Notes: generated by a model from the letters alone, not told the origin. Positions 2,879-51,972 are shown, numbered from the stretch's first letter. The stretch is 64,000 bases of DNA from a candidate division WOR-3 bacterium (GCA_965649105.1 CBFGJP010000002.1:637-64636), one strand, 5' to 3'. Numbers and translations: made by a program.

Positions 2879-2908
2879 TGTGATTTTTTGTCAATACCAA
2901 TTGTCAAT

Positions 2909-3904
2909 TTACTTTAACAAATAAAGCAAGATTAAGTTTAAAATGTATAAAAAGATAATGATGAGCGCATCTAAAGATACAGGCAGATGTTTCTTCTCTG
3001 CCCGATAAGTTAGACTGATTATCACTACTGCTGTTATAATTATCCCAAACAATGCAGAGATCTTGTGATTTTGACTTACCATAATTAAGATAGACCCCTT
3101 TGTATAAATAAAATCGATAATTCCCAGAATCGCAATGTTAAATATTGTACTACCCATTAGATTACCCATTGCCAAATCTACTGCCTTACATCTCAACGCA
3201 CCAAAGCAAACAATTGTTTCAGGCAGGGATGTAGAACAGGCGATGAATATATTACCTACAAATGTCTGTCCGAGCCCGGTTATTTCAGCAATACCCTCAC
3301 CAATCTTTGGGAGGAATATTGCTGCGCCAATAACGAGGAATGCATTTATACTAAATAATGTGATTGCTTTATTGAGTGTTATATCAGGGTAAAGTTCAAT
3401 ATTTTGATGATTAATATTTCCAGCGTTCTTCTTTTCATACTGGAAGATTAATCTCATCGCAAATATATATATAATAATAAAAATTAAACTATTCAAACCA
3501 ACCCAACCGAATCTTGGCATATTTTCTTTTAAAGAGAGACTAACGATAACAATACTTAGTTGCAATATTCCAAAACTCCCAGAAATTATGTGTCCTGTCT
3601 GGGCGAGACTTGAAATTGGCATTTTGCGATGAAATAAGTCAAGAAATGCGATTATCAACAGATTGAACACGCAACTTCCAATTAAATCGCCGGCTGCAAT
3701 ATCGGGTACCTGGGCATAAGTAACAGCACTGATTGAATTTACCATTTCAGGAAGGGAGGTAATGGAAGCGACCAGAATGAGTCCAATAAAGGTTCTGCCA
3801 AGCCCGCTTTTTTCTGCAATCACATCACTATAAAATGAAAGCCTTGTTCCAGCAAAAAAAATTATAACGGTACATAAAAGCAAACCTGTAATTAAAAATA
3901 GCAT
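2909..3904 (-). CDS. Ca2+:cation antiporter (CaCA/YrbG-type Na+/Ca2+ exchanger family)
   Basis: 331 aa, polytopic. Contains the duplicated alpha-repeat signature of the family (GLGRTFIGLILVASITSLPE and GLGQTFVGNIFIACSTSLPE). Confidence 0.8.
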   Translation of the reverse strand: MLFLITGLLLCTVIIFFAGTRLSFYSDVIAEKSGLGRTFIGLILVASITSLPEMVNSISAVTYAQVPDIAAGDLIGSCVFNLLIIAFLDLFHRKMPISSLAQTGHIISGSFGILQLSIVIVSLSLKENMPRFGWVGLNSLIFIIIYIFAMRLIFQYEKKNAGNINHQNIELYPDITLNKAITLFSINAFLVIGAAIFLPKIGEGIAEITGLGQTFVGNIFIACSTSLPETIVCFGALRCKAVDLAMGNLMGSTIFNIAILGIIDFIYTKGSILIMVSQNHKISALFGIIITAVVIISLTYRAEKKHLPVSLDALIIIFLYILNLILLYLLK

Positions 3905-3947
3905 AATGTGATTATAATAATTTAAGCTATAAAGTCAATAACACTTC

Positions 3948-3975
3948 TTGACTCATTATGTATTTTAATTATAAT
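3948..3975 (+). promoter_or_regulatory. sigma70-type promoter TTGACT-16-TATAAT; predicted start coincides with ATG 3982 (leaderless)
   Basis: ttgact at 3948-3953, 16-nt spacer, tataat at 3970-3975, ATG 7 nt downstream. Confidence 0.6.
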
Positions 3976-3981
3976 AGAAAT

Positions 3982-6777
3982 ATGACCCCCTTGGTGTTGA
4001 CTTTATTTTTCTTCAATCAATATTTTGGGCAAAACAAAATTCAATATCGTGATTTTAATTTCAAAATTCTTTCCAGCGAGCATTTTGAAATTTATTTTTA
4101 CGCGGGTGGAGAAACTATTGCGCATTTTGCCCAGGATGTACTTGAAGATGGCTATGAACAATTGAGTAAAGATTTTGGCATCGAAGTTGAATTTCGTATT
4201 CCGGTGATACTTTATAATGCACCAAATCATTTTTCGCAGACAAATGTTACTCTCGAACTGATTGAAGAATCGGTTGGTGGTTTTACGGAAATTTTGAAAA
4301 ATCGTATGGTGATACCATTTAATGGTGATTACGAAGAATTTCGCCATGTGCTCATTCACGAGTTAACGCATGTATTTGAGTTTGTAATTTTCTTTCCCTC
4401 AAAACTTGAGGCGCTATTGACGGGAGATCTTTTTTACTCAATACCGCTGTGGGTAATGGAAGGATGTGCGGAGTTTTTTTCTCAGGGCTGGAATCTTGAG
4501 GCAGATATTTATATGCGGGATTTAATTATGCATAATCAGGTAATTCCATTATCAGATCTTGGCAATTATGGTGGTTATATAATATATAAGGAAGGGCAGG
4601 CCTTTTATAATTATGTAAATATCAGATATGGCAGAGAGAAAATCAGTGAATTTATTCACCTTCTTAAATCAAAGAAAAATTTGGAAAATGCATTTGTCAG
4701 CGCGTTTGGTGTCAGTGTTGATGAATTCAATAAACGCTGGATTAAATTTTATCAATTACAATACTGGCCCAAAGTTAAGCTTTCGGAAAATTTCGATAAT
4801 TTTGCGCGTGTTGTCTATGACCATAAAAAAACCCGATCTTTCTATAATACGTCTTCCGCGATATCTCCCAATGGTGATAAAATTGCATTTATCAGTGATC
4901 GTCAGGGAAATGTTGATTTGATTATAATATCAAGTATCGACGGTAGAATTCTGAAAAAACTCATTCGTGCTGAATATTCTTCAGGCTATGAAGGTCTACA
5001 TCTTTATCAAGGTGGCATTAGCTGGTCGCCAGACGAGAAATATATCTGTTTTGCTGCTAAGGCGCGGGGTGATGATGTCCTTTATATAGTAAATGCTCGA
5101 AGCGGAAGAGTGTATAAAAAATTTAAATTAAAACTTAACGGCATATACTCTCCAAAATTTTCACCTGATGGGAAAAAGATTATATTCAGTGGACTTAAGG
5201 ATTCCTATCTTGATATTTATCAAATTGAAATAGCCAGTGGCAGCGTTGAGAGAATAACAAACGATATCTATGCAGATAAATTTCCTGTTATATTTTCAGA
5301 AGACCGAATTGCCTTTGTCTCAGACCGGCCGGATTCCAATGGAAATTATTATTATGGTAGTTATGGTGTTTTCTTGAAAGAAGGAAACGACATTAAAAGA
5401 CTCACGCCACGCGCAACCTACATAGCCTGGCCTTTGTTTAATGCGGACACAGGTATCTACTTCGTTGCTGATTATGACTCAGCCTATAATCTTTATTATT
5501 TTTCATTCAATGCGAATAAAATAGTTAGAAGAACAGATATCCTTACTGGGATTTATTATCCTTCCATTTCCAGAGATTTTCAAAAAATTGCATTCGGGTA
5601 TTATAATGACTATGGCTATGATATTTGTGTTGTGAAAGAGCCACTCAAAAGTATGGTTGAATGTGATTCAATCGAAGTTGAAATTGCTGAAAATTCATAT
5701 AGCGCAGGTGAGCTTAATAACGAAAAAATAAGAAAGTATCGCCTGAAATTTACGCTTGATTATATTGTAGCAAGTGCTTCATATTATACACCACTTGGTT
5801 TCTCCGGAATGACCCAGATTGCCTTAAGCGATATCCTTGGTGACCATCTCATTCAATGCAGCACTGACTTTTATGGGAGTTTATCTTCTTCAGACATATT
5901 TTTTGTTTACTGGTATTTGAAGAAAAGAATGGACTTCGGCTTTGCCTTTTATCAGTATTTGAACTATTTTGCTTCAGGGAATGACCTTGTAATATGGCGT
6001 TATCTTGGTTTAGGTGGTATGGTCCAACATCCATTTACAAAATTTTTCCGAGCCGAACTCGGCCTTTATAAATACAAAATTTATGAAACAAAATGGGTCG
6101 ATTTCTTTGACGATTTTTATTCTGATATATATACAGAAACTTCTTATAATTTCACATATCCTGAACTTTCTTTCATTTTTGATAATGCAAAATGGGGTGA
6201 TACCGGTCCCATAAATGGTGTGCGCACACGCATAACAGGATATACTACTATATTTAGTGATTTTGATATAAAGGTTGGTGTTTTCGACTACCGGCGATAT
6301 TTTAGACTTTCGCCCAGGGCGAGTTTTGCCACCAGATTGGTTTTGGCAGGAAATTTTGGTAAAGAAGATGAACTCTGGTCAATAGGTGGTCCCGGTTCAA
6401 TCCGGGGGTTTGATTATTATACATTTACTGGTACAGATTTAGGATTCTTTAATTTTGAATATCGTTTCCCATTTATAGACCGACTCAGACTGGCATTTCC
6501 AATACCCATGGAAATCAAAAATATCAGGGGAGTTCTGTTTGCTGACTTTGCGGGAATATATTCTGATTCATTTGATGTCTTTGAATCAGCAGAGGGGATT
6601 TTACCAGTTCGCCTCAAAGATGTAAAGATGGGGCTTGGATTTGGATTGCGCTTTAATCTACTTTTCGCAATATTCAAATTAGATTTTGCCCGTTCAAATG
6701 ATCTGCAAAACTGGGTTGATGAAAAGGGCGAACCCTCAAAATGGAAATTTTATCTGACAATCGGCCCCGAATGGTAA
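3982..6777 (+). CDS. Omp85/BamA-family outer-membrane beta-barrel protein with N-terminal HExxH metallopeptidase-like module and TolB-like PD40 beta-propeller repeats
   Basis: HELTHVFEF motif near residue 135. Repeated PD40-like units (SPNGDKIAFISDRQGNVDL; SWSPDEKYICFAA; SPKFSPDGKKIIFSG; EDRIAFVSDRPDSNG). C-terminal approx. 300 aa with alternating amphipathic strands, the Omp85 loop-6 motif IGGPGSIRGF, and a terminal aromatic residue (…TIGPEW). Start moved to ATG 3982 because the track start 3958 lies inside the promoter. Confidence 0.7.
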   Translation: MTPLVLTLFFFNQYFGQNKIQYRDFNFKILSSEHFEIYFYAGGETIAHFAQDVLEDGYEQLSKDFGIEVEFRIPVILYNAPNHFSQTNVTLELIEESVGGFTEILKNRMVIPFNGDYEEFRHVLIHELTHVFEFVIFFPSKLEALLTGDLFYSIPLWVMEGCAEFFSQGWNLEADIYMRDLIMHNQVIPLSDLGNYGGYIIYKEGQAFYNYVNIRYGREKISEFIHLLKSKKNLENAFVSAFGVSVDEFNKRWIKFYQLQYWPKVKLSENFDNFARVVYDHKKTRSFYNTSSAISPNGDKIAFISDRQGNVDLIIISSIDGRILKKLIRAEYSSGYEGLHLYQGGISWSPDEKYICFAAKARGDDVLYIVNARSGRVYKKFKLKLNGIYSPKFSPDGKKIIFSGLKDSYLDIYQIEIASGSVERITNDIYADKFPVIFSEDRIAFVSDRPDSNGNYYYGSYGVFLKEGNDIKRLTPRATYIAWPLFNADTGIYFVADYDSAYNLYYFSFNANKIVRRTDILTGIYYPSISRDFQKIAFGYYNDYGYDICVVKEPLKSMVECDSIEVEIAENSYSAGELNNEKIRKYRLKFTLDYIVASASYYTPLGFSGMTQIALSDILGDHLIQCSTDFYGSLSSSDIFFVYWYLKKRMDFGFAFYQYLNYFASGNDLVIWRYLGLGGMVQHPFTKFFRAELGLYKYKIYETKWVDFFDDFYSDIYTETSYNFTYPELSFIFDNAKWGDTGPINGVRTRITGYTTIFSDFDIKVGVFDYRRYFRLSPRASFATRLVLAGNFGKEDELWSIGGPGSIRGFDYYTFTGTDLGFFNFEYRFPFIDRLRLAFPIPMEIKNIRGVLFADFAGIYSDSFDVFESAEGILPVRLKDVKMGLGFGLRFNLLFAIFKLDFARSNDLQNWVDEKGEPSKWKFYLTIGPEW

Positions 6778-7979
6778 TGTGGTTATTGTTATTTATTTAT
6801 TTAGGATGTGGTAATGTCAAAGAGCAGAAATGCGTTGTATACTTCTGGCATGTTATGGGTGGGCCGATCGGCAGAAAACTTGATGAGATGGTGCAGGAAT
6901 TTAACAGGTTGCACCCTGAAGGTGAGATACGATCAGCCCAGATGGGTTCTTATGATGCCCTGGCGCAAAAACTTATGGGTGCCATTGCTTCAAATTCACC
7001 ACCAACAATCGCTCAAATGTATGAATCATGGACCGACCAGTTTTTTAAAGCAGGATTTTTGGAACCCCTGCAGAATTTTATTGAAAAAGATTCTTCTTTT
7101 GACCTTTTAGATTTTTTCCCGGTATTCATTGAAGATAATACCTTCGACTCAATAATTGTTACGCTCCCTTTTAACAAAAGTCTTCCGGTATTTTATTACA
7201 ATGCAGCGGTATTGGATTCAGTGGGGATAGCAGCATTTCCTGAAAATTGGGTTGATTTCAGAATTATGTGCGAAAAATTGAGAAAATTAAAAATTTGGCC
7301 TACATCCTGGCCCATAGATGTCTGGTATTTTGGTACAATGGTTTATCAAGAAGGTGGTGAGTTGTTCAATGAAAATACGAAAAGACCAATGTTTCATAGT
7401 GAACCAGGGGTCAGGGTGTTAGAATATCTGGTGGGTTTAGTGAAAGATAGTTTATTCTATCTCAATCCGGGGTTTCAACGTCAGGACGAGTTCTTGAGCG
7501 GAAATGTGGCAACAATACCCGCCTCAATTGTCTCTTGGGTATTCTTAAAGGGCCGACCAAAATTTAAAATGGGGGTAGCACCATTCCCCGGTGGGAAAAA
7601 TAAAAAAGTTGTGATCGCCGGCACTAATATTGGAATGTTTAAAAAAGCCAGTCCTGAACAAAAAAACCTTGCCTGGGAATTTATTCGATGGTTTCTGGAA
7701 CCCGAGCAACAGATAAAATGGACAAAAGCAAGTTATTACCTACCTACCCGACAGAGTGTAATCAAATTTCCTGAATTTCAAGAATTTCTGAAAGAAAATC
7801 CCAACTATGACAGGATTGTTGCCCAGCTTGCTCTTGCAACCACCGAGCCTAAGTCAAAAGAATGGTTTACCGGCAGGATATATTTAAACGAAGCACTTGA
7901 AGAAGCCATGCGTCTTGAAAGAACGCCGGAACAGGCACTTGATAATGCCGCAAAAAGATTATTTGTTGACCTGGAGTGA
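6771..7979 (+). CDS. ABC transporter substrate-binding lipoprotein (family 1 extracellular solute-binding, sugar-type)
   Basis: Lipobox LLFIYLGC|G. Similarity pattern of MalE/UgpB-like SBPs across the length. No permease or ATPase genes adjacent. Confidence 0.65.
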   Translation: MVMWLLLFIYLGCGNVKEQKCVVYFWHVMGGPIGRKLDEMVQEFNRLHPEGEIRSAQMGSYDALAQKLMGAIASNSPPTIAQMYESWTDQFFKAGFLEPLQNFIEKDSSFDLLDFFPVFIEDNTFDSIIVTLPFNKSLPVFYYNAAVLDSVGIAAFPENWVDFRIMCEKLRKLKIWPTSWPIDVWYFGTMVYQEGGELFNENTKRPMFHSEPGVRVLEYLVGLVKDSLFYLNPGFQRQDEFLSGNVATIPASIVSWVFLKGRPKFKMGVAPFPGGKNKKVVIAGTNIGMFKKASPEQKNLAWEFIRWFLEPEQQIKWTKASYYLPTRQSVIKFPEFQEFLKENPNYDRIVAQLALATTEPKSKEWFTGRIYLNEALEEAMRLERTPEQALDNAAKRLFVDLE

Positions 7980-8070
7980 TTGTGGATTTTAAACCTGCAA
8001 GACTTGATACATTATCATTAGCAACATCAACAATAACAAGTATAATTTTGATTGTTCTATCTATCTTTTT

Positions 8071-8949
8071 TTGGTAAACCGAATCCCGTACGGATGGTTA
8101 TTCGCTATGTTATTGATTGCTATTCCTTTGGTTAGTTATCTTTTAAGCCCTAAAATTTATTACCTACAAGGTGGACAGTTTATCATTGAAAAAGTTATGG
8201 GCAAAAAGATCAAAATACCGATTAGTGAGATTGAAGGCATTTTTGCGGTTGAAGACTTTTATAAATTGAAACCCGTGAGGTCAATCGGTAATGGTGGATT
8301 ATTTGGTTATTATGGAATATATACTACAAAAGATTATGGGAATATTAACTGTCAATTAACAAGGTTGAAAAGGATTCTGATTATTAAATCAGAAAAAGGA
8401 TATTACGCAATATCACCAGCGAAGACGGAAAGGCTATTTGAATTGTTCAAATCAATGAATGCTATAACACTGACTAAAGAAATTTCGGAAGCCGAGCCAA
8501 TACAAAAGAAGGCGAGTCCGTTGATATTATTAATTCCTGATACAATCGTCGCTCTTCCCTTGATTATGATAATTTTACTTTATCCACAACTACCCGCTAA
8601 TATTGCAATCCATTTTGATGCAAGTGGAACCCCTGACGGATGGGGTCCCAAAATTTCTTTTCTTTATTTTGGATTCATTCCCCAGGTAATAATTATGATA
8701 ATATGCGCAATTTCATTCTTTGCTATGAGAAATAAATTCCGTAATGCAATGCCGGTTTATCTCTTGATAATTATGCTTTCATTGATCCAGCTCATAGTAG
8801 CTTATTTTTCATTTGATATATACTGGTTCAATGTGTACCAATCGCATTTGGCTCCTATGGGTTATCTATTTATAATTTTTACCGGAGTATTTTTGGCCTT
8901 GTTAATTATCTACTATCGGAATTTAACAAAAAAAGAAGACCACAGATAA
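8071..8949 (+). CDS. membrane protein with bacterial PH-like N-terminal domain and DUF1648 (SdpI/YhfL-like) C-terminal domain
   Basis: N-terminal TM segment, then a soluble region, then PANIAIHFDASGTPDGWGPK (DUF1648 signature) followed by several TM helices. Confidence 0.5.
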   Translation: MVNRIPYGWLFAMLLIAIPLVSYLLSPKIYYLQGGQFIIEKVMGKKIKIPISEIEGIFAVEDFYKLKPVRSIGNGGLFGYYGIYTTKDYGNINCQLTRLKRILIIKSEKGYYAISPAKTERLFELFKSMNAITLTKEISEAEPIQKKASPLILLIPDTIVALPLIMIILLYPQLPANIAIHFDASGTPDGWGPKISFLYFGFIPQVIIMIICAISFFAMRNKFRNAMPVYLLIIMLSLIQLIVAYFSFDIYWFNVYQSHLAPMGYLFIIFTGVFLALLIIYYRNLTKKEDHR

Positions 8950-8978
8950 TATTTTGTTAATTCCCAGAGCCATTATTA

Positions 8979-9605
8979 CTACTTGAAAATTTCTTTTCCC
9001 TTACCAACGATTTTATTCAATTGTTCTCTGAAATAGTCAGTATTTTCTACGATATGTTTAGGAATTTGCTGACAATAATACTCCCAGGAGCGTTTTATTT
9101 CAGCACCAAGGAGTTGCACCAGGGTTCCATCGCGCAGACCCTGTTCAACCTTTTCTTGATTATAGAGAACAAGATCAGAAGCAAGTGCCTTGGCAAGTCT
9201 TCTTGCCCTCTCGTGCCACTTTTTATCTTCTTCGCTCATTTCCGGCTGGAGCGGTGTTTTAGGTTTTGAGACAATTTCTGCCTGAGGCGCAACTGGACTT
9301 TCAACTTGGGGAGGTTCGGGAATTTCTGGTTTTGGTGGAGGTTGCACAGTAGGCTGTGGGATATTTTCCTGTGCGGGTTTTTGCATCTCGGATGATACAG
9401 TCGGTTCTACCTTATATGGTGGTTCAACTTTGGGGGGTGGGGGTGGGGTTTCAACACGCGGAACCTCAGGTATTGACGGTGGGCTCTCTTTTTTTATTAA
9501 AATCACATTCTGACACTTTGGGCATTTAACCTTTACACCACTTGCAGGAATTTTATTTTCATCGACATTATATTTTGAATGGCAATTTGTGCATTCAACA
9601 ATCAT
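8979..9605 (-). CDS. zinc-ribbon (MJ0042-type CxxC…CxxC) protein with proline-rich linker and conserved C-terminal domain
   Basis: N-terminus CTNCHSKYNVDENKIPASGVKVKCPKCQN. About 90 aa of P/E/V-rich low-complexity sequence. Structured helical C-terminus. Confidence 0.5.
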   Translation of the reverse strand: MIVECTNCHSKYNVDENKIPASGVKVKCPKCQNVILIKKESPPSIPEVPRVETPPPPPKVEPPYKVEPTVSSEMQKPAQENIPQPTVQPPPKPEIPEPPQVESPVAPQAEIVSKPKTPLQPEMSEEDKKWHERARRLAKALASDLVLYNQEKVEQGLRDGTLVQLLGAEIKRSWEYYCQQIPKHIVENTDYFREQLNKIVGKGKEIFK

Positions 9606-10188
9606 TTTTTAACTCCTTCAAAATCTTCAGGCACTGCCTTTTGAGTTGCCAAAGCGTGCCATTATTTTTTATAACATATTTTGCCGCCCGTTCCATCTCA
9701 GATTCTTTTTTCTGGCTCTGCAGGATACGGTAAAATATCTTTTCCGGAATCCCTCTTTTTTGTGCCCTTGTTTTTTTGGTTTCAAGTGGTGCCTTAACGA
9801 GAATGGGATAATCAACTTTTTTTAATAATTCGGGCCAATCAAAAAGCAATGCAGCATCAATTACCACCATACCACTGGGAATACTATCAATCTTTTTGTT
9901 AATTTCCTCAAGCAATCTGGGATGAGAAAGACGATTAAGAATCCTCAGATATTTTTGATTAGAAAAGACAATGTCCCGCAGTTTTTTTCTGTCAACCTTT
10001 TCACCTGTAAATATCTCATCACCAAAATGGATTTTTAATCTTTCGGCAATTGCTGGCAATATGCTTTTCCCGATGCGATCAGCAGAAATATATTTCATTC
10101 CCCAGGATTGAAACATCTTGGCAACAGTTGTTTTTCCTGAACCAATGTTCCCGCCCACCCCGATCACCACCTTATTTTTTTTCATCAA
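9595..10188 (-). CDS. coaE: dephospho-CoA kinase
   Basis: P-loop GVGGNIGSGKTT at the N-terminus; length 197 aa; CoaE family pattern (DAD…, C-terminal lid). Confidence 0.85.
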   Translation of the reverse strand: MMKKNKVVIGVGGNIGSGKTTVAKMFQSWGMKYISADRIGKSILPAIAERLKIHFGDEIFTGEKVDRKKLRDIVFSNQKYLRILNRLSHPRLLEEINKKIDSIPSGMVVIDAALLFDWPELLKKVDYPILVKAPLETKKTRAQKRGIPEKIFYRILQSQKKESEMERAAKYVIKNNGTLWQLKRQCLKILKELKNDC

Positions 10189-28834: not shown

Positions 28835-30496
28835 ATGATTCCACTAATTTTTATTTTATTATCAATGCCACCAAGTCCGTATACCCGGGCACCGATTAAA
28901 CCCCCCAAATTTCCTGCCTTAATGAATAGAGGCCCGGGATTTATTCAACCGGCACTCGGTGAAAAAAAGACAATTGTAATACTTGTGGATTTTTCCGATA
29001 ATGTAGCACAATATCCTAAGTCAGGATTTGATTCTTTGATCTATGGCGAAAATGAAAATTCTATGCGTAAATACTACAGTGAAGTATCCTATGGAAAGTT
29101 TACCATCAGCAAACAGAGTAATATCGTCGGCTGGGTTCGTGCACCGCAGAATTATGACTATTATGTCGGTGATTCATTTGGCTTTTACAGTGATTATCCC
29201 CATAATGTGCAGAAACTTGTCGAAGATGCCTGTGCCCTTGCTGACCCTTATGTTGATTTTTCTCAATATGACGGCGATGGCGATGGAATAGTGGATGGGA
29301 TATTCATTGTCCATGCCGGTCCGGGTGCTGAAGAAACCGGTAGTCCAAATGATATCTGGTCCCACCAGTGGCAACTCTCAAATACCGGGACGAGTTGTCC
29401 CGGACCTTATCAGACCCAAGACGGGGTGAAGGTAGATTATTACTCAATGGAACCGGAAAAGCTTGTTAATCCGCCTTCAAGGATCACGGTTGGTGTCTTT
29501 GTCCATGAATTTGGCCATGTACTTGGATTGCCTGATTTGTACGATATAGATTACTCAACAAATGGAATTGGTTTGTTCTGTTTAATGGCGGCTGGTTCCT
29601 GGGGTAGAATCAATTCTGCAGATCTCCCCGGCAATTCGCCATCCCATCCTTCTGCCTGGTGCAAATATCAACTGGGCTGGCTTACACCGACACCGGTAGA
29701 ACAGTCTGGGATTAGCAAATTGGAGCAGCAGTTAATTCCCTGCTCAGCAAAGAGTCCATTTGCAATTCGGATGTGTGAAGACCCGGGTGGTCCAGACTGG
29801 AATAGTTATACTGGTGGAAGGGGTGAATATTTCCTGATTGAGAACAGATACCGAACTGGATTTGACCGCGCGCTTCCTGGTAATGGATTGCTCATTCTCC
29901 ATGTTGATGATTCAAGAACAACCAACCAAAATGAAAACCATCCATTGGTCGGTATTATGCAGGCAGATGGTGAGGCTGGTTTTTTGCTTCCAAGGTCCAC
30001 CTGGGGAAGGGCTGAAGACTTATGGAAGAATGACACGATTGGATTCTATGATGGTTCAATACCATCAAGTAGATTTTATGGCGATTCCGCAAGCGGTGTA
30101 ACAGTTTATAATATCGGACCTGCAGATTCTATAATGACCGCATCCTTCTGGATAAGCCCAGTATTTCTGGGAAGGGTTGCTTCGTTTCCTAATCCATTTC
30201 GAGCTGATCGATTACCGTCGTGGGGCAAAAGTGTTGTTATTTCATATACACCATCTGATACCACCGAGTTAGGTGCTCAACATCCACCGTTTAAAGTCAC
30301 AATATATAATATCGCAGGAGAAAGGGTAAGAATTCTTGATACCCCAGATGAAATTGACATCTATAGAAGGTGTGCATTATGGGATTTGAAGAACGAAAAA
30401 GGAAATGATGTGGTGAGTGGGATGTATATCTATGTTATTGAATTACAGACAGAAAGGGTAGAAAGGAGTAAGGGTAGACTCACTATAATCAGATAA
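28835..30496 (+). CDS. secreted M6-family (immune inhibitor A-like) zinc metalloprotease with T9SS C-terminal sorting domain
   Basis: HEFGHVLGLPDLYD zincin motif in M6 context; N-terminal signal sequence; C-terminal approx. 80 aa with T9SS CTD pattern (…KVTIYNIAGERVRIL…GMYIYVIELQT…). Confidence 0.75.
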   Translation: MIPLIFILLSMPPSPYTRAPIKPPKFPALMNRGPGFIQPALGEKKTIVILVDFSDNVAQYPKSGFDSLIYGENENSMRKYYSEVSYGKFTISKQSNIVGWVRAPQNYDYYVGDSFGFYSDYPHNVQKLVEDACALADPYVDFSQYDGDGDGIVDGIFIVHAGPGAEETGSPNDIWSHQWQLSNTGTSCPGPYQTQDGVKVDYYSMEPEKLVNPPSRITVGVFVHEFGHVLGLPDLYDIDYSTNGIGLFCLMAAGSWGRINSADLPGNSPSHPSAWCKYQLGWLTPTPVEQSGISKLEQQLIPCSAKSPFAIRMCEDPGGPDWNSYTGGRGEYFLIENRYRTGFDRALPGNGLLILHVDDSRTTNQNENHPLVGIMQADGEAGFLLPRSTWGRAEDLWKNDTIGFYDGSIPSSRFYGDSASGVTVYNIGPADSIMTASFWISPVFLGRVASFPNPFRADRLPSWGKSVVISYTPSDTTELGAQHPPFKVTIYNIAGERVRILDTPDEIDIYRRCALWDLKNEKGNDVVSGMYIYVIELQTERVERSKGRLTIIR

Positions 30497-32591: not shown

Positions 32592-34019
32592 ATGGAAAAG
32601 ATATTAAAGAATATAATTGACACATTGAAATTAAAAAAAGCTACATACGGTGATGTGCGCCTTGTTCAAGAAGAGACCGAGACTATAATGATAAAGAACG
32701 GAATCGTCGAGGCACTCACCCATAGTTTTGATATGGGATTTGGTGTAAGGGTACTAAAAAATAACGCCTGGGGATTTGCTTCTTCAAACTTGGTTAATAA
32801 TAGTGAGGGGAACCGCGTGACAAAGAATGCACTATTGATTGCCGGAGCGTCAGCAAAGATTAAAGGGAATCCGGTAATCTTGAGCCCCATTGGGCCACAA
32901 AATGGTTCATACCTTACTGCAGTCAAGGTCGATCCATTCAAACTCCCGTTGAGCAAAAAGATTGACCTATTACTTAAATGTGATAAAGTGATATCTGGAG
33001 ATCAAAGAATAAAGACAAGATTTTCTTTTATATCATTCCGCCGGGTGAAGGTCTATTTCTATTCCACCGAGGGGTCTAAGATAATTCAGGAATTCACCTA
33101 TGTGGGTGGCGGAGTAAAGGCATTTGCCATGGACCAGGGCGAATTACAAATTCGTTCTTATGATGATTATGGACAGGCAGGTTATGAATTTATAGAAGGA
33201 TTGGATTTAATTAAAAATGCTGAACGGGTAAAGGAAGAAGCCATTATGCTTTTGAGTGCAAAACCCTGTCCTTCTATGAAAACAACGGTGATTCTTGATT
33301 CCAATCAGATGGTCCTGCAGGTTCATGAATCCTGTGGACATCCAACTGAACTTGATCGCGTTTTAGGAACCGAAGCTTCCTATGCAGGCACATCTTTCAT
33401 GACACCAGAAAAACTGAACAATCTAAGATACGGTTCTGATATTGTGAATATTGTAGCAGATGCTACAATCCCTGGTGGTCTTGGTACATTTGGTTGGGAT
33501 GATGAGGGTATACCAGCGCAGAAAGTATACTTAATAAAAAATGGTTTATTCGTAGGTTATCAAAGTTCTCGAGAAACAGCACCGGTGGTAAACGCCAAAT
33601 CAAGCGGCAATATGAGGGCGGATGGTTGGAACCGGATACCACTGATAAGAATGACGAATATAAATCTCTTACCGGGTGAATGGAAACTTGAAGATATGAT
33701 TGCCGATACAAAAGAAGGTATCTTTATGACAACGAATAAATCATGGTCGATTGATGATAAAAGATTGAATTTCCAATTTGGTTGTGAACTCGCACGCAGA
33801 ATTGAAAATGGAAAATTGACAGAGGTTTATAAGAATCCAACTTATGCAGATATAACACCACAGTTCTGGAATAAATGTGATGCCATAGGGAATAAGGATT
33901 ATTGGCATCTCTACGGGGTACCTAATTGTGGAAAGGGTGAACCTGGACAGACGATGTTCGTTGGGCACGCAACGGCACCTGCCCGATTTAGAGACGTCCA
34001 GGTTGGGATTGCAAAATGA
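32592..34019 (+). CDS. tldD: TldD-family metalloprotease (cytoplasmic)
   Basis: 475 aa; TldD/PmbA fold pattern with HESCGHPTELD (HExxxH) motif. Confidence 0.8.
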   Translation: MEKILKNIIDTLKLKKATYGDVRLVQEETETIMIKNGIVEALTHSFDMGFGVRVLKNNAWGFASSNLVNNSEGNRVTKNALLIAGASAKIKGNPVILSPIGPQNGSYLTAVKVDPFKLPLSKKIDLLLKCDKVISGDQRIKTRFSFISFRRVKVYFYSTEGSKIIQEFTYVGGGVKAFAMDQGELQIRSYDDYGQAGYEFIEGLDLIKNAERVKEEAIMLLSAKPCPSMKTTVILDSNQMVLQVHESCGHPTELDRVLGTEASYAGTSFMTPEKLNNLRYGSDIVNIVADATIPGGLGTFGWDDEGIPAQKVYLIKNGLFVGYQSSRETAPVVNAKSSGNMRADGWNRIPLIRMTNINLLPGEWKLEDMIADTKEGIFMTTNKSWSIDDKRLNFQFGCELARRIENGKLTEVYKNPTYADITPQFWNKCDAIGNKDYWHLYGVPNCGKGEPGQTMFVGHATAPARFRDVQVGIAK

Positions 34020-34041: not shown

Positions 34042-35325
34042 ATGTCTAAACAGTTAAATTCCAAATTAGGATTTTTCTTGTTGACTATGCTAACACATTG
34101 TGCTTATTTCAACACCTTTTATAATGCCCAAAATTATTTTAATCAGGGAATGAAATTGGTTAAAGACGACACCCTTAAATACGATAATGAATATTTTGAC
34201 AAGACTATTGAAAAGTCTGCATTGGTGATTGCTAAATATCCAGAGTCAAGATATGTTGACGATGCCTTATTTATGATGGGTGTAGCATATTATTTTAAAG
34301 GTGACTATACCCGGGCGATTGATAAACTTGAATTTCTAACTACAAACTTCCCGGCTTCAAAACTATATGATGATGCAATGTACTATAGTGGGCTTGCATA
34401 CTACAAGAATGATAAATTGAGTAAAGCAATAATTGCTTTGAAAGAGGCAACAAAAACCAAAAGTTTTAGCAAAAGAGCAAATATAGTGCTCTGCTATGCA
34501 TACTTTCGTGATCGGAATTATCGCGATTTAATGAATACCGCCCATTCACTTCTCCAGGAAAAACTAAGACGTCGTGAAAGATTGGTTATATTGAATATAC
34601 TCGGTGAAGCAGCTTATTTAATGAATGAATATGAATCCGCGCTTCAGACTTTTAACGAAGTAAAAATTTTACAGGATTCTCCTCAAGAAAAGAAAAATAC
34701 AAAATTGAAGATTGCTAATATTTACCTAAAAATGGGTAAATATGATGAATGCAAAAATTTCCTTCAAAATGAATCGGACCCTGAATTCAGGGTGTTGCTT
34801 GCTGATTTATATGTCCAAACCGATAGTATTGAAACCGCAAAGGAGTTATATAAAGAAATAAAAGAGACCCAGGCGCCTGAATTTGCAGCTAAGGCACTAT
34901 ACGAACTTGCTCTGGTTGCGGAGAAAGAAGATAGCCTTGAACTGGCAATTGCATATTACGATTCACTCATTCCTAAGGCAAGTGGCGAGATTCTGAACAA
35001 GGCAAAAGCGCGGTCTGAAATCTTAAAAAAAATAGTAGAATTAACAAAAAAAACTGATGAACTTGATAAAGCACAATTTGCATTGGGTGAATTGTATTTT
35101 GTTGATGTGAAGGATATCCCAAGGGCAATGAAATATTATGAGAATGTATATGTAAATTATCCAAAAAGTAGTTTTTCACCCAAAGCATTGTATGCAAATT
35201 TCTGGATAAGCAAAATGATTTTAAAACAGGACAGTCTTGCACAGAAACTGGTAGATGAATTGATTAAAAGATATCCGGATACTGAATATGCTCAGAGCGC
35301 AATTAATTTAATGAATAAGGAATGA
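34042..35325 (+). CDS. TPR-repeat lipoprotein
   Basis: Lipobox LTMLTHC|A; multiple TPR repeats (YxxAxxxxxxxxY pattern). Confidence 0.65.
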   Translation: MSKQLNSKLGFFLLTMLTHCAYFNTFYNAQNYFNQGMKLVKDDTLKYDNEYFDKTIEKSALVIAKYPESRYVDDALFMMGVAYYFKGDYTRAIDKLEFLTTNFPASKLYDDAMYYSGLAYYKNDKLSKAIIALKEATKTKSFSKRANIVLCYAYFRDRNYRDLMNTAHSLLQEKLRRRERLVILNILGEAAYLMNEYESALQTFNEVKILQDSPQEKKNTKLKIANIYLKMGKYDECKNFLQNESDPEFRVLLADLYVQTDSIETAKELYKEIKETQAPEFAAKALYELALVAEKEDSLELAIAYYDSLIPKASGEILNKAKARSEILKKIVELTKKTDELDKAQFALGELYFVDVKDIPRAMKYYENVYVNYPKSSFSPKALYANFWISKMILKQDSLAQKLVDELIKRYPDTEYAQSAINLMNKE

Positions 35326-42661: not shown

Positions 42662-43177
42662 TTATAATACCCCAAATCTTGCACCAAAAGAGAGTCGGAA
42701 CAATGCTTCAGTATCGCCCGCATCATAAACGATGATGCCTGGTTCAACAAATAATTTTGTTTTTAGATTTAATGAGTAATTAAAACCCATACCAAATCGG
42801 AAAGAAAAAAATGTTTGGGTATCTGCTTGTCCAGGCGGGTCAAAAATTTCAAACCCAAGTCCACCATGGACATAGGGTTCAATTTCTGTCATCGGGATAT
42901 AGAATAATCCATCAATAGAAAGTCCACTTGCCACCCATCCTCCAGAATTTAAATAAAATCTGGTGCCATTACCAAAAACCACTTCAGTAAATGTCATTCT
43001 TAAACCTATCTGCTTAATGGGATTGATAATGCATTCTCCACCAATACCGAAATAGGCATCGTTACCGATGTACATACTTGCTTTAGGAGCAAGTTCAAGA
43101 ACAGCAAATTGTCTTTTAAAACCTTTTGCCTGGGCAAAAAATATTAGAATGATAATGAAAATAATAAACTTTTTCAT
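42662..43177 (-). CDS. small outer-membrane beta-barrel protein (OmpW/Opa-like)
   Basis: Signal peptide; alternating hydrophobic beta-strands; C-terminal …RFGVL. Confidence 0.55.
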
Positions 43178-47146: not shown

Positions 47147-47174
47147 TTGACTTTAACCAGATTCGGTCTATAAT
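47147..47174 (+). promoter_or_regulatory. sigma70-type promoter TTGACT-16-TATAAT for the secreted TldD/TldE-like gene pair
   Basis: ttgact 47147-47152; tataat 47169-47174; AAGGAGG RBS. Confidence 0.6.
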
Positions 47175-47196
47175 TTAAATCATTAAGGAGGTTTTG

Positions 47197-48867
47197 ATGA
47201 AAAAATTAATGATTTCTTTAATTCTGACATTTCTAATTGCTGGCTTTGCAGAGAATGTGGTTCTTAATACAATGTCAAATGAGCTGAATCGTTCTTACCG
47301 TATTCTTGGCAAACAAAAGCCATACCCACTTTATTTTCTACAATATGAGATAATGGACGAACACCAGGTATTTATCCTGGCATCATTGGGTGCAATTACC
47401 GAAGACTATGAGCAGAAACACCGCTATCTTGATGTAGATGTTAGAATTGGTTCATGCCGGCTCGATAATACCCATGAAATTAGGGGGGCAGAAGAGTATG
47501 ATTGGTGGAAATCACCGGTTGAAGTCCCGATTGATAATAATGGCGATGCATTACGTTTGCTCTTATGGGCAGAAACGGATAAAAAATTCAAAGCAGCGCA
47601 GGAAAGGTACATAAAAATTATTAATGAAAGACAGGTGAAAGTTTTAGAAGCAGATACATCACCTGATTTTAGTGTTGCACCAAAAGTGATTTATGAGGGA
47701 AATCTTGATACAATTATTTTTGATAAAGAATTGTGGAAGGCAAAACTTCGTAGACTATCAAACATTTTTAAAGATTATCCATGGATCTACAACTCCCGCG
47801 TCGCACTTCGGGCGAATTCTTTGACCAAGTATCTTGTAAATACTGATGGCACAAAATTAGTTCACAATAAAATTGGTTATTATCTAAATATTTACGCTGA
47901 GACAATGGCTGATGATGGAATGGAACTCTATCTTAGTTATCCGGTTTATGTGAGAAATCTTAAAGATATGCCTGATGAAGAGATTTTAAAAAGCTATACT
48001 GATTCTTTGATTCAAAATTTATATGCATTAAGAAATGCGCCGATGGTTGAACCATATTCAGGACCTGCAATTATGATGAATCGTGCGTGCGGTGTATTCT
48101 TTCATGAAATTTTTGGACATCGGATTGAAGGGCATAGACAGAAGAGCGAATTTGAAGGGCAGACATTCACGAAAAAATTGAATGAAAGGATAATGCCTGA
48201 ATTTATTTCGGTATATGATGACCCTACGATGGAAAGATATGGAAATCAGGATTTAAATGGTCATTATCTATTTGATGATGAAGGGGTAAGGGCACAGAAA
48301 GCAACGATAGTTGAAAATGGAATACTGAAATGTTTTTTAATGAGTAGATCACCAATCGCAAATTTCCCATCTTCAAATGGCCATGGTAGAAGACAATATG
48401 GCAGAAAGGTTGTAGCACGCCAGGGTGTTCTGTATATAAAGTCAAGCAATGAAGTTCCTTTTGAAAAATTACGCAATGCATTAATTGAGGAATGCAAAAG
48501 GCAGAATAAGCCATATGGTCTTATCTTTTATGATATTTCCGGTGGATTTACTACTACTGGTAGAGAGGGACCACAGACCTTTAAAGTCATTCCCCTGTTA
48601 GTAAAAATGGTCTATGTAGATGGCAGACCGGATGAGGTTGTGAGAGGTGTTGATATTGTTGGAACACCGCTTCTTTCGCTATCAAAAATTATTCTAACCG
48701 GTAATGACTACGATATTTTTAATGGAACCTGTGGTGCAGAGTCAGGATGGGTTCCGGTCTCGGCGATTGCCCCTTCCATTCTGGTCTCTGAAATTGAGGT
48801 TGAAAAAAAGGCAAAAGGTCAGGACAAACCGCCGATTTTACCTGCACCAGGTGAATCATCAAGATAG
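47197..48867 (+). CDS. secreted TldD-like metalloprotease (HExxxH present)
   Basis: Signal peptide MKKLMISLILTFLIAGFA; HEIFGHRIEGH motif; C-terminal PmbA/TldD domain (…SNGHGRRQ…). Start set to ATG 47197 (track start is TTG 47194). Confidence 0.75.
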   Translation: MKKLMISLILTFLIAGFAENVVLNTMSNELNRSYRILGKQKPYPLYFLQYEIMDEHQVFILASLGAITEDYEQKHRYLDVDVRIGSCRLDNTHEIRGAEEYDWWKSPVEVPIDNNGDALRLLLWAETDKKFKAAQERYIKIINERQVKVLEADTSPDFSVAPKVIYEGNLDTIIFDKELWKAKLRRLSNIFKDYPWIYNSRVALRANSLTKYLVNTDGTKLVHNKIGYYLNIYAETMADDGMELYLSYPVYVRNLKDMPDEEILKSYTDSLIQNLYALRNAPMVEPYSGPAIMMNRACGVFFHEIFGHRIEGHRQKSEFEGQTFTKKLNERIMPEFISVYDDPTMERYGNQDLNGHYLFDDEGVRAQKATIVENGILKCFLMSRSPIANFPSSNGHGRRQYGRKVVARQGVLYIKSSNEVPFEKLRNALIEECKRQNKPYGLIFYDISGGFTTTGREGPQTFKVIPLLVKMVYVDGRPDEVVRGVDIVGTPLLSLSKIILTGNDYDIFNGTCGAESGWVPVSAIAPSILVSEIEVEKKAKGQDKPPILPAPGESSR

Positions 48868-48875
48868 GAGGAGAA

Positions 48876-50690
48876 ATGGCAATTATTAATTTCAAATGTC
48901 AAATGAAAAATTCCAGAAAGAAAGAGAATGGTCAGTTGGTTGGGATTGGTAGGCTAATTTTTTCATTGATTACACTGATTACCTCGGTCTTTAGTTTTTC
49001 ATCAGAACCAACAGAGAAAAATATTTTATTCCAGGCATTGCAGGATGAGATGACGAGGAGTATTAACGAATTACAATTAGAGAATCAGGCAAAGCCTTAT
49101 TATATCGCCTACCGTGTTAAGGATATTAATGAGATTGAAATAAAGGCATCATTCGGCGGATTGTTATCAAGTGTTGAATCAAAAAAACGGGAAATCTTTG
49201 TTGATTTAAGGGTGGGCGATTATCAATTGGATAATAGCAATTTTATCTGTCAGACTACGGGTTCAAGGATAATACAATCTGAAAGGGCTGACCTGCCGAT
49301 TGAAGATGAATATTTTGCTTTAAGGCAGGCAATCTGGCTTGTCACAGACGGCACATATAAGAAGGCACTTGAGAAACTTGCCCGAAAAAAGGCTTACTAT
49401 CAGAATAAACAGACCACGGATACAGTCCCTGATTTTATTAGGGTCAAACCCTGCTCACTTATTGAACCTGTCCCAATTTTTATATACGATATAAATAAAC
49501 TGAATGCAGAAGTTGTCAGGTTTTCAAAAATTTTAAAAAATTATAAATCAATCTTTGAATCAAATGTACAGTTTATGTTAAAATACGGGAATCAATATTT
49601 TCTGGATAGCGATGGGGCAAAGAATGTGCGTCAGGAGATTATTGCAGGTATTGAGGTGAAGGCGAAGGCACAGGCAAAGACCGGCGAGGACATTGAAGAT
49701 TTCATTGGATTTTATGGTAAAAGTCTTGAAGATTTAGATTTTGCAGGAATTGAAAAATCAATTAATGCTTGGGCAGAAACATTAATGGTTAAGGTTAATG
49801 CAAAGAATGAAGAAGGTTATTCAGGACCTGTTTTATTTCTTGGGCAGGCTGCATGTGAATTATTCTTTCAGATTCTTGGTAAAGGTGCAAGTGGTGTTAG
49901 ACAACCGGTTGTTGAAAGCGAAATGATTGACAGAAACATACCAAAGTCAAACTTCGGTTTACTTTCTAATCGTCTTAACAAGCGCATATTACCGGAGTTC
50001 ATTTCGGTATTTGATGACCCCAATTTAAGAGAATATAAGGAAATACCTTTGATTGGTGGTTTTTCAATAGATGAACAGGGTGTAAAGTCAGAAAGGGTTG
50101 AACTTGTTAGAGAAGGTAAATTGATAAATTTCTTGATGAGCAGGACCCCAACAAATAAAATAAAAGAATCAAATGGCCATGCGCGGTATTATGATGAATT
50201 CTATGGTTCAAGATATATTGGATTTGTGAGTAATCTGATAGTCAATTCCAGGCAAAGATTGAGTGAAACAGAACTTATAGAAAAATTAAAAACGCTGGCA
50301 AAGGATTATGGAAATGATTATGGAATCATCATTACCAGATTACAGACTACCGCACCGCAAAATGCAATGGACCGATATAGAAGATTTTACCAGGCAAGGG
50401 CAAAACAACTACCATTGATTTCTGCACCGGAAAATATATATCGTATTGATACAAAGACCGGTTCTGTAGAATTGATTGGCGGTCTGGAATTTTCTCAAAT
50501 TACACCGGGCATTTTAAAAGACATCGTTGCAACCGGAGATAAAGAATATATATACAATTCTGTATATCGGAGTGATTATGGTGATGAGTATCCAATCTCC
50601 ATTGTTGCACCTGCAATCCTTATAGAAGAGATAGAATTGGTTCCAAAGAAGCCTGAAACAAAAAAACCGCCGATTGTTCCCCGTCCCTAA
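48876..50690 (+). CDS. secreted TldE/PmbA-like partner protein (HExxxH replaced, predicted non-catalytic)
   Basis: Paralogous to the upstream gene over the C-terminal domain (ILPEFISVFDDP…FLMSRTP…SNGHARY). QILGKGASGV in place of the HExxxH site. N-terminal hydrophobic signal/anchor. Confidence 0.7.
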   Translation: MAIINFKCQMKNSRKKENGQLVGIGRLIFSLITLITSVFSFSSEPTEKNILFQALQDEMTRSINELQLENQAKPYYIAYRVKDINEIEIKASFGGLLSSVESKKREIFVDLRVGDYQLDNSNFICQTTGSRIIQSERADLPIEDEYFALRQAIWLVTDGTYKKALEKLARKKAYYQNKQTTDTVPDFIRVKPCSLIEPVPIFIYDINKLNAEVVRFSKILKNYKSIFESNVQFMLKYGNQYFLDSDGAKNVRQEIIAGIEVKAKAQAKTGEDIEDFIGFYGKSLEDLDFAGIEKSINAWAETLMVKVNAKNEEGYSGPVLFLGQAACELFFQILGKGASGVRQPVVESEMIDRNIPKSNFGLLSNRLNKRILPEFISVFDDPNLREYKEIPLIGGFSIDEQGVKSERVELVREGKLINFLMSRTPTNKIKESNGHARYYDEFYGSRYIGFVSNLIVNSRQRLSETELIEKLKTLAKDYGNDYGIIITRLQTTAPQNAMDRYRRFYQARAKQLPLISAPENIYRIDTKTGSVELIGGLEFSQITPGILKDIVATGDKEYIYNSVYRSDYGDEYPISIVAPAILIEEIELVPKKPETKKPPIVPRP

Positions 50691-50763
50691 CGCCTTTCTT
50701 ATTTATGAAAAATTGTTTTTTTCAGATAATAAAATATATAATACAATCTGGAGGATTTACTCC

Positions 50764-51972
50764 TTATTTCTTTAAATTAAATTTTGTCAGGAGTACATTA
50801 ATTGCTTCCTCAAGGAATTCTTTCTTTAAGAATATGTTGATTGATAATTCTGATGTGGTGACTGCTTCAATGTGTGTCTTGATCTTTGAAAATTCTTTAA
50901 AGATATCGGCTAAAATCTTATTTTCAGAACCGATTCCTGCACCAATAATACTCAATGAACTGATGTCAAGGGATTCTTTTATCTCTTTTATCTTTAATTT
51001 TCTTGCCAATTTCCCGATTATTTTCTTAACCAATTCTTTTTCCTCAAGGGGCGTGATAAATGAAAGATCAAAGCGTGGTGCATCAGAGATTCCGTGGAAG
51101 AAGAATTTTAGATGGACGCCGGCTTTTGTTAATTCGGTTGTAACCTGAGATAGATATTTTGGATTTTTTGGAACCTGGACAAGGGTTATTAAATACAGTC
51201 CTTCACTATGTGTGATTGCCTTGGGTTTTGGATGTTCCATACCATTTATATGGGTGATAAGTGTACCTGCTTTATTATTAAAACTATTTTTTACTTCAAT
51301 GGGAACACCAAATCTTGCACCGATTCCAGTTGCCCTTGGATGTAAGACCTTTGCCCCACGACTGGCAAGTTCAAGCATTTCTTCGTAGGATATTTTATCG
51401 ATCTTTTTCACTCCCGGAAATCTATTCGGGTCCTCGGTGAATACACCATCCACATCCGTATAAATAATACATTTTTGTGCATTCAAAGCGGCAGCAATGG
51501 CAACCGCAGTCGTATCAGAGCCACCCCTGCCTAATGTTGTTATTTCTTTTTCAAAACTCACACCTTGGAATCCACAGACCACAGGAACAAAACCCTGGCT
51601 TAATGCGTTTTTTATCCTTTCATCACGAATTTCAATTATCCTGGCGTCGGTATGACGGTTATCCGTAATTATCCCAACCTGTGAACCAGTAAATGAAATC
51701 GCCTTTAATCCCCATTTTTGCAACGCCATTGTGAATAGTGCAACTGAGATTCTCTCGCCAGCGGTGAGGAGCATATCCATCTCCCTTGCCTTAGGGTTTT
51801 TTGTTATTTGATTTGAGAGTTTAATCAATTCATCCGTCGTATGCCCCATTGCCGAAACCACGACAACTACATCATTATCTTTTTTCATCTTTGCCACGCG
51901 TTTTGCTGCCTTCAATATGAGTTGCGCATCAGCAACCGATGTTCCACCAAATTTGACAACAGAAAGACGCAT
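50764..51972 (-). CDS. lysC: aspartate kinase
   Basis: KFGGTSV N-terminal motif, amino-acid kinase fold, two C-terminal ACT domains. Confidence 0.9.
   Translation of the reverse strand: MRLSVVKFGGTSVADAQLILKAAKRVAKMKKDNDVVVVVSAMGHTTDELIKLSNQITKNPKAREMDMLLTAGERISVALFTMALQKWGLKAISFTGSQVGIITDNRHTDARIIEIRDERIKNALSQGFVPVVCGFQGVSFEKEITTLGRGGSDTTAVAIAAALNAQKCIIYTDVDGVFTEDPNRFPGVKKIDKISYEEMLELASRGAKVLHPRATGIGARFGVPIEVKNSFNNKAGTLITHINGMEHPKPKAITHSEGLYLITLVQVPKNPKYLSQVTTELTKAGVHLKFFFHGISDAPRFDLSFITPLEEKELVKKIIGKLARKLKIKEIKESLDISSLSIIGAGIGSENKILADIFKEFSKIKTHIEAVTTSELSINIFLKKEFLEEAINVLLTKFNLKK

Follow-up and report, generated by a model that had tools for sequence, protein, structure and literature searches.

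TldD and TldE (PmbA) make up a peptidase that is regarded as cytoplasmic; its known jobs are the maturation of microcin B17 and the degradation of CcdA, and roles in Pqq cofactor processing and in protein quality control have been proposed. In a candidate division WOR-3 bacterium (GCA_965649105.1, CBFGJP010000002.1), an original prediction made from the sequence alone described two adjacent TldD/TldE-like genes on the + strand, both with N-terminal signal sequences, at positions 47147–50690 of the 64,000-nt (64-kb) stretch of DNA analyzed here (the window, to which all positions refer). This locus raises the question of whether an enzyme of the TldD/TldE type, with one active and one inactive subunit, works outside the cytoplasm, and what it would do there. 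Our analysis suggests, with a probability of roughly 0.7, that the two genes form an operon encoding a TldD/E-like metallopeptidase that is exported and has a likely function in the general breakdown of oligopeptides in the envelope. The exported pair would be a new variant of a known enzyme type, widespread and uncharacterized, which appears to repeat the evolution of an active/inactive heterodimer. In the full-text literature, no published description of exported, periplasmic, or fused TldD/E proteins was found, although an earlier description may exist.

A Catalytic and a Ligand-Less Paralog Side by Side

The two genes and the segments that distinguish or unite their products are as follows.

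47197–48867, + strand: gene 1, 556 amino acids (aa); predicted exported catalytic subunit, a TldD-type (MEROPS M103-like) metallopeptidase
48103–48135, + strand: active-site helix HEIFGHRIEGH, gene 1 residues 303–313
48724–48747, + strand: GTCGAESG with C512, the third metal ligand site of gene 1
48826–48849, + strand: C-terminal tail KPPILPAP of gene 1
48876–50690, + strand: gene 2, 604 aa; predicted exported non-catalytic paralog, probably a functional analogue of TldE/PmbA
49866–49898, + strand: degenerate former active-site helix FQILGKGASGV, gene 2 residues 331–341
50664–50687, + strand: C-terminal tail KPPIVPRP of gene 2

The original prediction had proposed a pairwise alignment as a check on the paralogy of these two + strand open reading frames (ORFs), and the products indeed aligned over their full length (29% identity, ~580 aligned positions, BLASTP E 3e-58). 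Both matched the PmbA/TldD C-terminal domain PF19289 above its gathering cutoff of 22 bits (gene 1: E 2e-30, 105.9 bits; gene 2: E 3e-15, 56.5 bits), and neither matched the N-terminal (PF01523) or the central (PF19290) Pfam domain at E<=0.01. The best sequence match of gene 1 in the PDB was Escherichia coli TldD (E 3e-13), and its homologs formed more than 8000 clusters.

The TldD catalytic motif ascribed to gene 1 was found to be conserved well beyond this genome. In the phmmer alignment, H303, E304, and H308 corresponded to H262, E263, and H267 of E. coli TldD, and C512 to C454; in the E. coli enzyme, H262, H267, and C454 are the metal ligands and E263 is the catalytic Glu (PMC5810440). Among 120 gene-1 relatives, FFHEIFGHR[IVM]EGH was near-invariant, with conservative substitutions at three flanking positions, and GxCGAESG was invariant; the SNGHGRR segment was also retained in gene 1. 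At the site of gene 2 that aligns with the helix, the two His and the Glu are replaced by F331, K336, and Q332, respectively, and this loss, likewise predicted from the single sequence, held across the family: HExxxH and the Cys ligand were absent from all 118 gene-2 relatives, save one sequence that is a fusion. Metal ligands retained elsewhere in gene 2 would have spoken for a second true protease; no replacement metal site and no alternative conserved His/Cys cluster was visible in the 118 relatives, in which the sole conserved His was H435 (86%) and no Cys was conserved. Several conserved acidic residues of the gene-2 family are conserved in gene 1 too and are taken to be structural. At the level of sequence, these results confirmed gene 1 as the catalytic and gene 2 as the ligand-less paralog.

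The C-terminal tail, K-P-P-I-[LV]-P-x-P, is common to both subunits and aligned past the end of E. coli TldD. P546, L548, and P551 were invariant in the gene-1 family alignment, and P599 and P604 were present in 95% and 98% of the gene-2 family, respectively. The tail had low pLDDT in the monomer models described below, and this proline-rich segment may serve as an assembly latch. A type IX secretion domain was also considered for the two tails and dropped, as neither gene 1 nor gene 2 had an NCBIfam match to a type IX secretion C-terminal domain.

Predicted Fold and Chemistry

AlphaFold2 monomer models were built on alignments of 122 (gene 1) and 128 (gene 2) sequences and reached a pLDDT of 89.6 and 90.0, respectively, with a pTM of 0.88 for each; the low-confidence parts were the first 18 residues of gene 1, the first ~42 of gene 2, and the last 15–20 residues of both. 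In Foldseek searches against the PDB, the best match of gene 1 was E. coli TldD (5njf_A, E 9e-28, target-normalized TM 0.77, ~535 aligned columns), and that of gene 2 was the same TldD chain (E 8.6e-24, TM 0.73), with TldE next (2.8e-22). All 16 significant matches of the two models were TldD/TldE/PmbA chains, over about 530–570 alignment columns, and no match outside the TldD/TldE family fell below E 1e-3 for either model. According to these models, both proteins have the full-length two-domain TldD/TldE fold, including the N-terminal half whose sequence Pfam misses.

Some TldD/E-family pairs are reportedly N-deacetylases of natural-product pathways, going only by the title of a review cited in PMC10885120, so we considered whether the enzyme might be an amidase or N-deacetylase acting on an envelope or small-molecule amide rather than a peptidase. 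Three further residues that lie near or beyond the active site are invariant in the gene-1 family: H93 (47473–47475), H313 (48133–48135), and C433 (48493–48495). In addition, the Asp272/Lys456 pair, which forms a salt bridge in E. coli TldD (PMC5810440), is replaced in gene 1 by His313 and Ala514 (48736–48738), and the surroundings of the active site may therefore differ from those of TldD. However, gene 1 retains the HExxxH helix and the SNGHGRR segment together with the catalytic Glu and the Cys ligand, and the nearest solved structures are peptidase TldD chains. We thus considered the amidase alternative unlikely and a peptidase the better reading of gene 1.

Predicted Export Signals on Both Subunits

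Each of the two proteins begins with a segment of signal-peptide character, and both upstream start codons are preceded by a Shine-Dalgarno sequence.

47185–47191, + strand: Shine-Dalgarno AAGGAGG of gene 1, 5 nt before ATG 47197 (direct sequence reading)
47197–47250, + strand: predicted Sec signal peptide of gene 1, MKKLMISLILTFLIAGFA, with cleavage after GFA and mature start ENVV
48866–48871, + strand: Shine-Dalgarno AGGAGG of gene 2, overlapping the gene 1 stop codon (48865–48867), 4 nt before ATG 48876
48876–49001, + strand: predicted signal peptide of gene 2, with a 26-aa basic n-region, the h-region LIFSLITLITSVF, and cleavage after SFS

Signal peptides were scored by a home-made heuristic (basic start, hydrophobic core, small residues at -3/-1), not by SignalP. 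The gene 1 segment has two Lys, a hydrophobic core at residues 5–14 (mean Kyte-Doolittle hydropathy, KD, 2.81), and small -3/-1 residues in a predicted cleavage site between GFA and E. In gene 2, a 26-residue basic stretch (48876–48953, MAIINFKCQMKNSRKKENGQLVGIGR) is followed by LIFSLITLITSVFSFS and then SEPTEK, the cleavage context being GRLIFSLITLITSVFSFS before SEPTEK; this segment has six K/R and a KD of 2.55 at residues 27–36, and cleavage is predicted between SFS and S. The signal sequences anticipated for both N-termini proved to be a family trait, as 107 of 120 gene-1 relatives and 106 of 118 gene-2 relatives (~90% each) passed the heuristic. A comparable basic-then-hydrophobic N-terminus was found neither in E. 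coli TldD and TldE nor in the canonical TldD of the window nor in several cytoplasmic enzymes encoded there. Tat-like motifs occurred in no gene-1 and one gene-2 homolog, and lipobox-like motifs in none and two, respectively; the signal segments of gene 1 and gene 2 themselves contain no Cys and have neither a Tat motif nor a lipobox. Among homologs, the segments vary widely in sequence yet keep their character, and in both families the conserved mature sequence (..L..M..EL.RS..) begins right after them. In the models, they had low pLDDT (59–65 in gene 1, where a confident body follows, and below 62 in gene 2). These features make it a well-supported inference that both proteins are Sec-exported and that their signal peptides are cleaved.

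Alternatively, the hydrophobic N-terminal segments could be uncleaved anchors or start-codon artefacts, with the enzyme tethered to the membrane or even cytoplasmic. Gene 1 has an in-frame Met26, and the n-region of gene 2 is long; the NCBI annotation of a protein identical to the gene 2 product (P0121, 595 aa) begins at Met10 (48903). That ATG has no Shine-Dalgarno sequence, whereas strong ones precede the upstream ATGs of both genes. The long n-region is a feature of the closest WOR-3 clade; in other phyla, the corresponding segment of gene 2 orthologs is a short signal peptide of the classical type. The small -3/-1 residues after the hydrophobic core, the persistence of signal character despite sequence drift, and the fused proteins described below, which keep one N-terminal signal and nearly always none before the second half, all argue against this alternative, and a membrane anchor would in any event still put the enzyme outside the cytoplasm. 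We therefore regarded anchors or misplaced starts as improbable and Sec export as the preferred explanation.

As for the destination of the pair, proteins encoded elsewhere in the window suggest that the host WOR-3 bacterium has a diderm envelope, and the periplasm is thus the likely site. These include a TPR protein (34042–35325, + strand) with YbgF/BamD/PorW-like matches, mostly below curated cutoffs, and a small protein (42662–43177, - strand) with a weak outer-membrane beta-barrel-like match below the Pfam cutoff.

Gene Adjacency and Natural Fusions

Relatives of gene 1 were found in at least 591 genomes from a dozen mostly diderm phyla (scan with one genome per species). The loci were analyzed for the best 80 of these at least 591, in which the catalytic subunits shared 43–83% identity and which came from Acidobacteriota, Planctomycetota, Myxococcota, Elusimicrobiota, Verrucomicrobiota, Cyanobacteria/Melainabacteria, Ignavibacteria, Calditrichota, Aminicenantes, and others. 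Database entries of the same family (e.g., OGC38758.1 and the fused protein TET46318.1 of candidate division TA06) reached identities of up to 89% with gene 1 and 100% with gene 2. A TldD from the Leptospira exoproteome was examined as a possible member of the family and rejected, being the canonical 49.9-kDa protein.

Adjacency was counted in the 76 loci with enough downstream sequence, and in 74 of them a ligand-less paralog lay directly downstream on the same strand (frameshift-split in two, fused in one). The junction was a 4-bp ATGA/GTGA stop/start overlap in at least 45 loci, and the downstream protein starting there had a classical signal peptide. In the WOR-3 locus, the AGGAGG of gene 2 overlaps the stop codon of gene 1, a layout from which co-transcription and translational coupling of the pair are almost certain.

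A search with gene 2 of 1.84 billion representative proteins retrieved 3717 relatives at E<=1e-3, of which 1045 also passed E<=1e-30. Among the 146 new proteins within the best 150 matches, 36 were fusions of 1017–1194 aa, which gene 2 matched twice. All 36 had the catalytic half first and a single HExxxH; most had a hydrophobic N-terminal signal, and nearly all had no hydrophobic segment at the junction. At the junctions of P0081, P0196, and L062 (5791–9336), the C-terminal tail of the first half served as a linker running into the mature start of the second half. The natural fusions thus lack exactly the signal-peptide segment of gene 2, and a genuine targeting signal would be expected just once in each polypeptide, in split and fused forms alike. 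Because 16 of 39 fused proteins were closer to an unfused relative than to any fused one (e.g., P0081, 70% vs. 57%), fusion or fission seems to have happened several times.

Fixed-order gene fusion is classic evidence of two proteins acting as one unit. On the indirect evidence of the adjacency, the 4-bp overlaps, and the fixed-order fusions, we proposed a conserved module whose two proteins probably form a heterodimer within one compartment. The joint working of the two proteins, which had been deduced from one locus, hence gained support from near-universal adjacency, translational coupling, and many natural single-chain forms. It could instead be supposed that no complex is formed, with gene 1 acting alone or as a homodimer and gene 2 having a non-enzymatic role of its own, for instance as a binding protein. 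Two loci, L070 (5833–7527) and L013 (120–1847), have a solo catalytic gene, with no inactive paralog in the 6 kb and 2 kb available downstream, respectively; the partner may have been lost or be encoded elsewhere. A Sulfolobus TldD homodimer was reported to be active, a result disputed in another study (PMC5810440); in E. coli, activity needs both subunits. Independent partners would hardly account for an inactive gene that is adjacent in nearly every locus, mostly with a 4-bp overlap, or for frequent and apparently recurrent fusions that have a fixed order and, in nearly every case, no signal-like segment between the halves. This alternative therefore seems quite improbable beside a heterodimer.

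In one locus, L047, from an Oculatellaceae cyanobacterium metagenome-assembled genome, two divergently oriented copies of the pair were observed (1331–4992, - strand; 5788–9632, + strand); in the second, the catalytic protein retains HExxGH, and the CGAE motif is missing.

Origin of the Inactive Partner

The original prediction held that the pair mirrors TldD and TldE. The division into one catalytic and one ligand-less protein stood, whereas orthology of gene 2 to TldE found no support in its best fold match, which was TldD, or in the following alignment scores.

Gene 1 vs. gene 2 (phmmer): 190 bits
Gene-2 family profile vs. gene 1: 420 bits
Gene 1 vs. E. coli TldD: 52–54 bits
Gene 1 vs. the canonical TldD of the window: 16 bits
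Gene-2 family profile vs. E. coli TldD: 26.4 bits
Gene-2 family profile vs. E. coli TldE: 26.9 bits
E. coli TldD vs. TldE: 51.6 bits

Gene 1 is closer to gene 2 than to TldD, and descent of gene 2 from TldE predicts the opposite; the inactive partner therefore likely arose by a duplication inside the exported lineage. The two families also share invariant N-terminal residues (E29, R32, G65, R83, G85, and D90 in gene 1 numbering), the signal peptide, and the C-terminal PP[IL][LV]xxP tail. Both products scored far below the cutoffs of the NCBIfam equivalogs: gene 1 reached 48.8 bits against 513 for the bacterial and 82.9 against 635 for the archaeal TldD model (NF008006 and NF040952, respectively), and gene 2 reached 23.2 against 438 for PmbA (NF008268). 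Thus, gene 2 is probably an analogue of TldE in function and not an ortholog, and the duplication would mean that the pairing of an active with an inactive subunit, as in TldD/TldE, arose independently a second time. A neighbor-joining tree of 33 sequences, including E. coli TldD, TldE, and the canonical TldD of the window, had saturated distances and bootstrap values below 20% at its deep splits and was not used.

The separate, signal-less TldD that had been noticed in the same window (32592–34019, + strand) was verified as canonical: it has all three Pfam domains, HESCGH, a Cys-Gly-Lys motif, and no signal peptide, and it scored 111 bits against E. coli TldD. No TldE/PmbA gene was found beside it or elsewhere in the 64-kb window. 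Because this protein scores only 16 bits against gene 1, the exported pair is, as judged from sequence similarity, an additional and distant system rather than a recent copy of the canonical TldD.

Proposed Mechanism and Role

The E. coli TldD/E complex is a closed shell with a narrow channel that excludes all but unfolded peptides; these are held by main-chain contacts as an additional beta-strand and are cut into short pieces without sequence preference (PMC5810440; PMC10885120); its activity requires both subunits (PMC5810440). Because the catalytic apparatus is retained in gene 1 and the fold is preserved in the two proteins, the same machine in the periplasm is the most economical reading. 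Both proteins would be exported unfolded via Sec, lose their signal peptides, and assemble in the periplasm into a pseudo-symmetric heterodimer like that of E. coli. Cleavage would occur at the catalytic subunit, which alone has the predicted metal ligands His303, His308, and Cys512 and the catalytic Glu304, and the inactive subunit would complete the shell and gate the promiscuous active site. The substrates, the least certain part of this proposal, might be unstructured oligopeptides of the envelope, such as nutrient peptides released by secreted proteases or debris of envelope proteins. The window also encodes a metalloprotease of the M6 (immune inhibitor A-like) type whose N-terminus is hydrophobic (28835–30496, + strand; TIGR03296, 218 bits), and a secreted protease of this type could supply peptides to a periplasmic peptidase.

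The original prediction had suggested microcins or other exported peptides as possible substrates, and the pair might accordingly be a maturation or degradation protease dedicated to one exported ribosomal peptide, such as a microcin, the leader of a peptide made by ribosomes and modified after translation (RiPP), or a signaling peptide. E. coli TldD/E removes the leader of microcin B17 and processes klebsazolicin and a microcin C analogue (PMC5810440; PMC10885120), and it is encoded outside the clusters that it serves, so that missing neighbors are no strict argument against such a role. All-against-all clustering of the neighboring ORFs in the 80 loci, which came from many phyla, revealed no conserved neighbor family beyond the pair itself, and the suggested microcin/RiPP link was not borne out. 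The only shared neighbor was a 775-aa membrane protein in 17 of the 80 loci, and those examples that were checked all belonged to a single acidobacterial lineage. The operon itself is surrounded in the window by genes of central metabolism, encoding a HAD hydrolase, pyruvate:ferredoxin oxidoreductase, and aspartate kinase. The absence of conserved neighbors and these surroundings fit a general role, and the spread over at least 591 species-level genomes of very different phyla, together with the catalytic-subunit identities, fits a housekeeping enzyme. A role in one peptide natural product is thus less likely, and a protease dedicated to a single peptide seems highly improbable, whereas general oligopeptide breakdown agrees with the distribution.

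Several points weigh against an exported heterodimeric peptidase of general function, for which the support is computational throughout. The replacement of Asp272 and Lys456 by His313 and Ala514 and the invariant H93 and C433 mean that substrate or chemistry may differ from those of TldD. The signal peptides were judged by our own heuristic rather than by SignalP, and the long n-region of gene 2 in the WOR-3 clade could mark an uncleaved membrane anchor. The heterodimer is argued from gene order and fusions, and the two solo catalytic loci run counter to it. The independent duplication is argued from score asymmetry and shared features, the saturated tree having resolved nothing.

We also considered a bolder reading, in which the pair is a widespread and undescribed periplasmic "pencil-sharpener" peptidase of non-proteobacterial diderms, with its own duplication, a PP[IL][LV]xxP assembly latch, repeated fusion, and the function of a main route of oligopeptide breakdown in the envelope. 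Its carriers would be Acidobacteriota, Planctomycetota, Myxococcota, Elusimicrobiota, Verrucomicrobiota, some Cyanobacteria, WOR-3, and TA06. The odds are somewhat against this full version, which we put forward tentatively.

If the exported version is true, it would be a new player in envelope proteolysis and peptide nutrition. It is carried by groups that are dominant in soils, sediments, and wastewater and of whose periplasmic peptidases few are known. With the same solution seemingly evolved twice, the exported pair is a natural test of why the TldD/E family needs an inactive partner. Moreover, the natural single-chain versions would lend themselves to structural studies and could be engineered into a peptide trimmer that is sequence-independent and able to fold outside the cytoplasm.

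Probable Promoter and Start of the Operon

The single consensus promoter proposed for the pair corresponds to the following site.

47147–47174, + strand: sigma-70-type promoter-like site, TTGACT (47147–47152), 16-nt spacer, TATAAT (47169–47174); 11/12 consensus positions

The site ends 22 nt upstream of the gene 1 ATG. Sites with at least 11/12 matches to TTGACA/TATAAT were ~7-fold enriched in the 64-kb window (21 observed vs. 2.9 ± 1.2 expected from shuffles), and nearly all 21 have a 16-nt spacer; the sites sit just upstream of genes. Examples are listed below.

12571, 18326, 28796, 39258, 43264, and 47147, + strand: near-consensus sigma-70-type sites
54456, 52006, 43237, 26817, 22377, 22065, and 2894, - strand: near-consensus sigma-70-type sites

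Because such sites are enriched in the window and placed before genes, 47147–47174 is probably a real promoter of the pair, in line with the earlier proposal, and promoters in this WOR-3 genome seem to resemble those of E. coli closely and to have a strict spacing. A small correction concerns the start of gene 1 (ORF 47194/47197–48867), which is ATG 47197 rather than TTG 47194. The hairpin downstream of gene 2 was weak (z -1.7), and a terminator at its 3' side was not claimed. An ORF of 147 aa (50705–51148, + strand) lies antisense to the aspartate kinase gene (50764–51972, - strand) and is probably not a gene.

Comparison with Known Systems

The closest relatives in the databases bear automatic names, such as "metallopeptidase TldD-related protein," "TldD/PmbA family protein," [quoted passage not shown] or "hypothetical protein," which say nothing on export, on the pairing of an active with an inactive protein, or on fusions. 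The name "TldD-related protein" hides a separate, definable family, which could receive its own model in protein family databases.

N-deacetylase pairs of natural-product pathways, such as the lincosamide enzymes, are encoded by adjacent genes and have two subunits of the TldD/E type, as in the exported pair, and they work in the cytoplasm and belong to biosynthetic clusters. In these general traits, the exported pair differs by its predicted signal peptides and by having no conserved neighbors. The canonical TldD of the window belongs to the same superfamily and shares HExxxH; unlike gene 1, it has the three canonical Pfam domains and is signal-less, and the two are separated by the low score given above.

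Among the nearest known counterparts is E. coli TldD/TldE (PmbA; MEROPS M103; PDB 5NJ5 and related entries). The likeness extends to the two-domain fold of both subunits (Foldseek E about 1e-22 to 1e-27), to an HExxxH and a remote Cys in one subunit only, with a partner that has no ligands, and to the expectation that both subunits are needed together. The differences lie in sequence, gene organization, and predicted location. The mature proteins of the exported pair are ~60–110 residues longer, their N-terminal half is unrecognized by PF01523 and PF19290, and they have an extra conserved proline-rich C-terminal tail; in the exported catalytic subunit, D272 and K456 of TldD have become His and Ala. 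The genes of the exported pair are adjacent and translationally coupled, or fused, and both WOR-3 subunits have predicted export signals, whereas the E. coli proteins have none.

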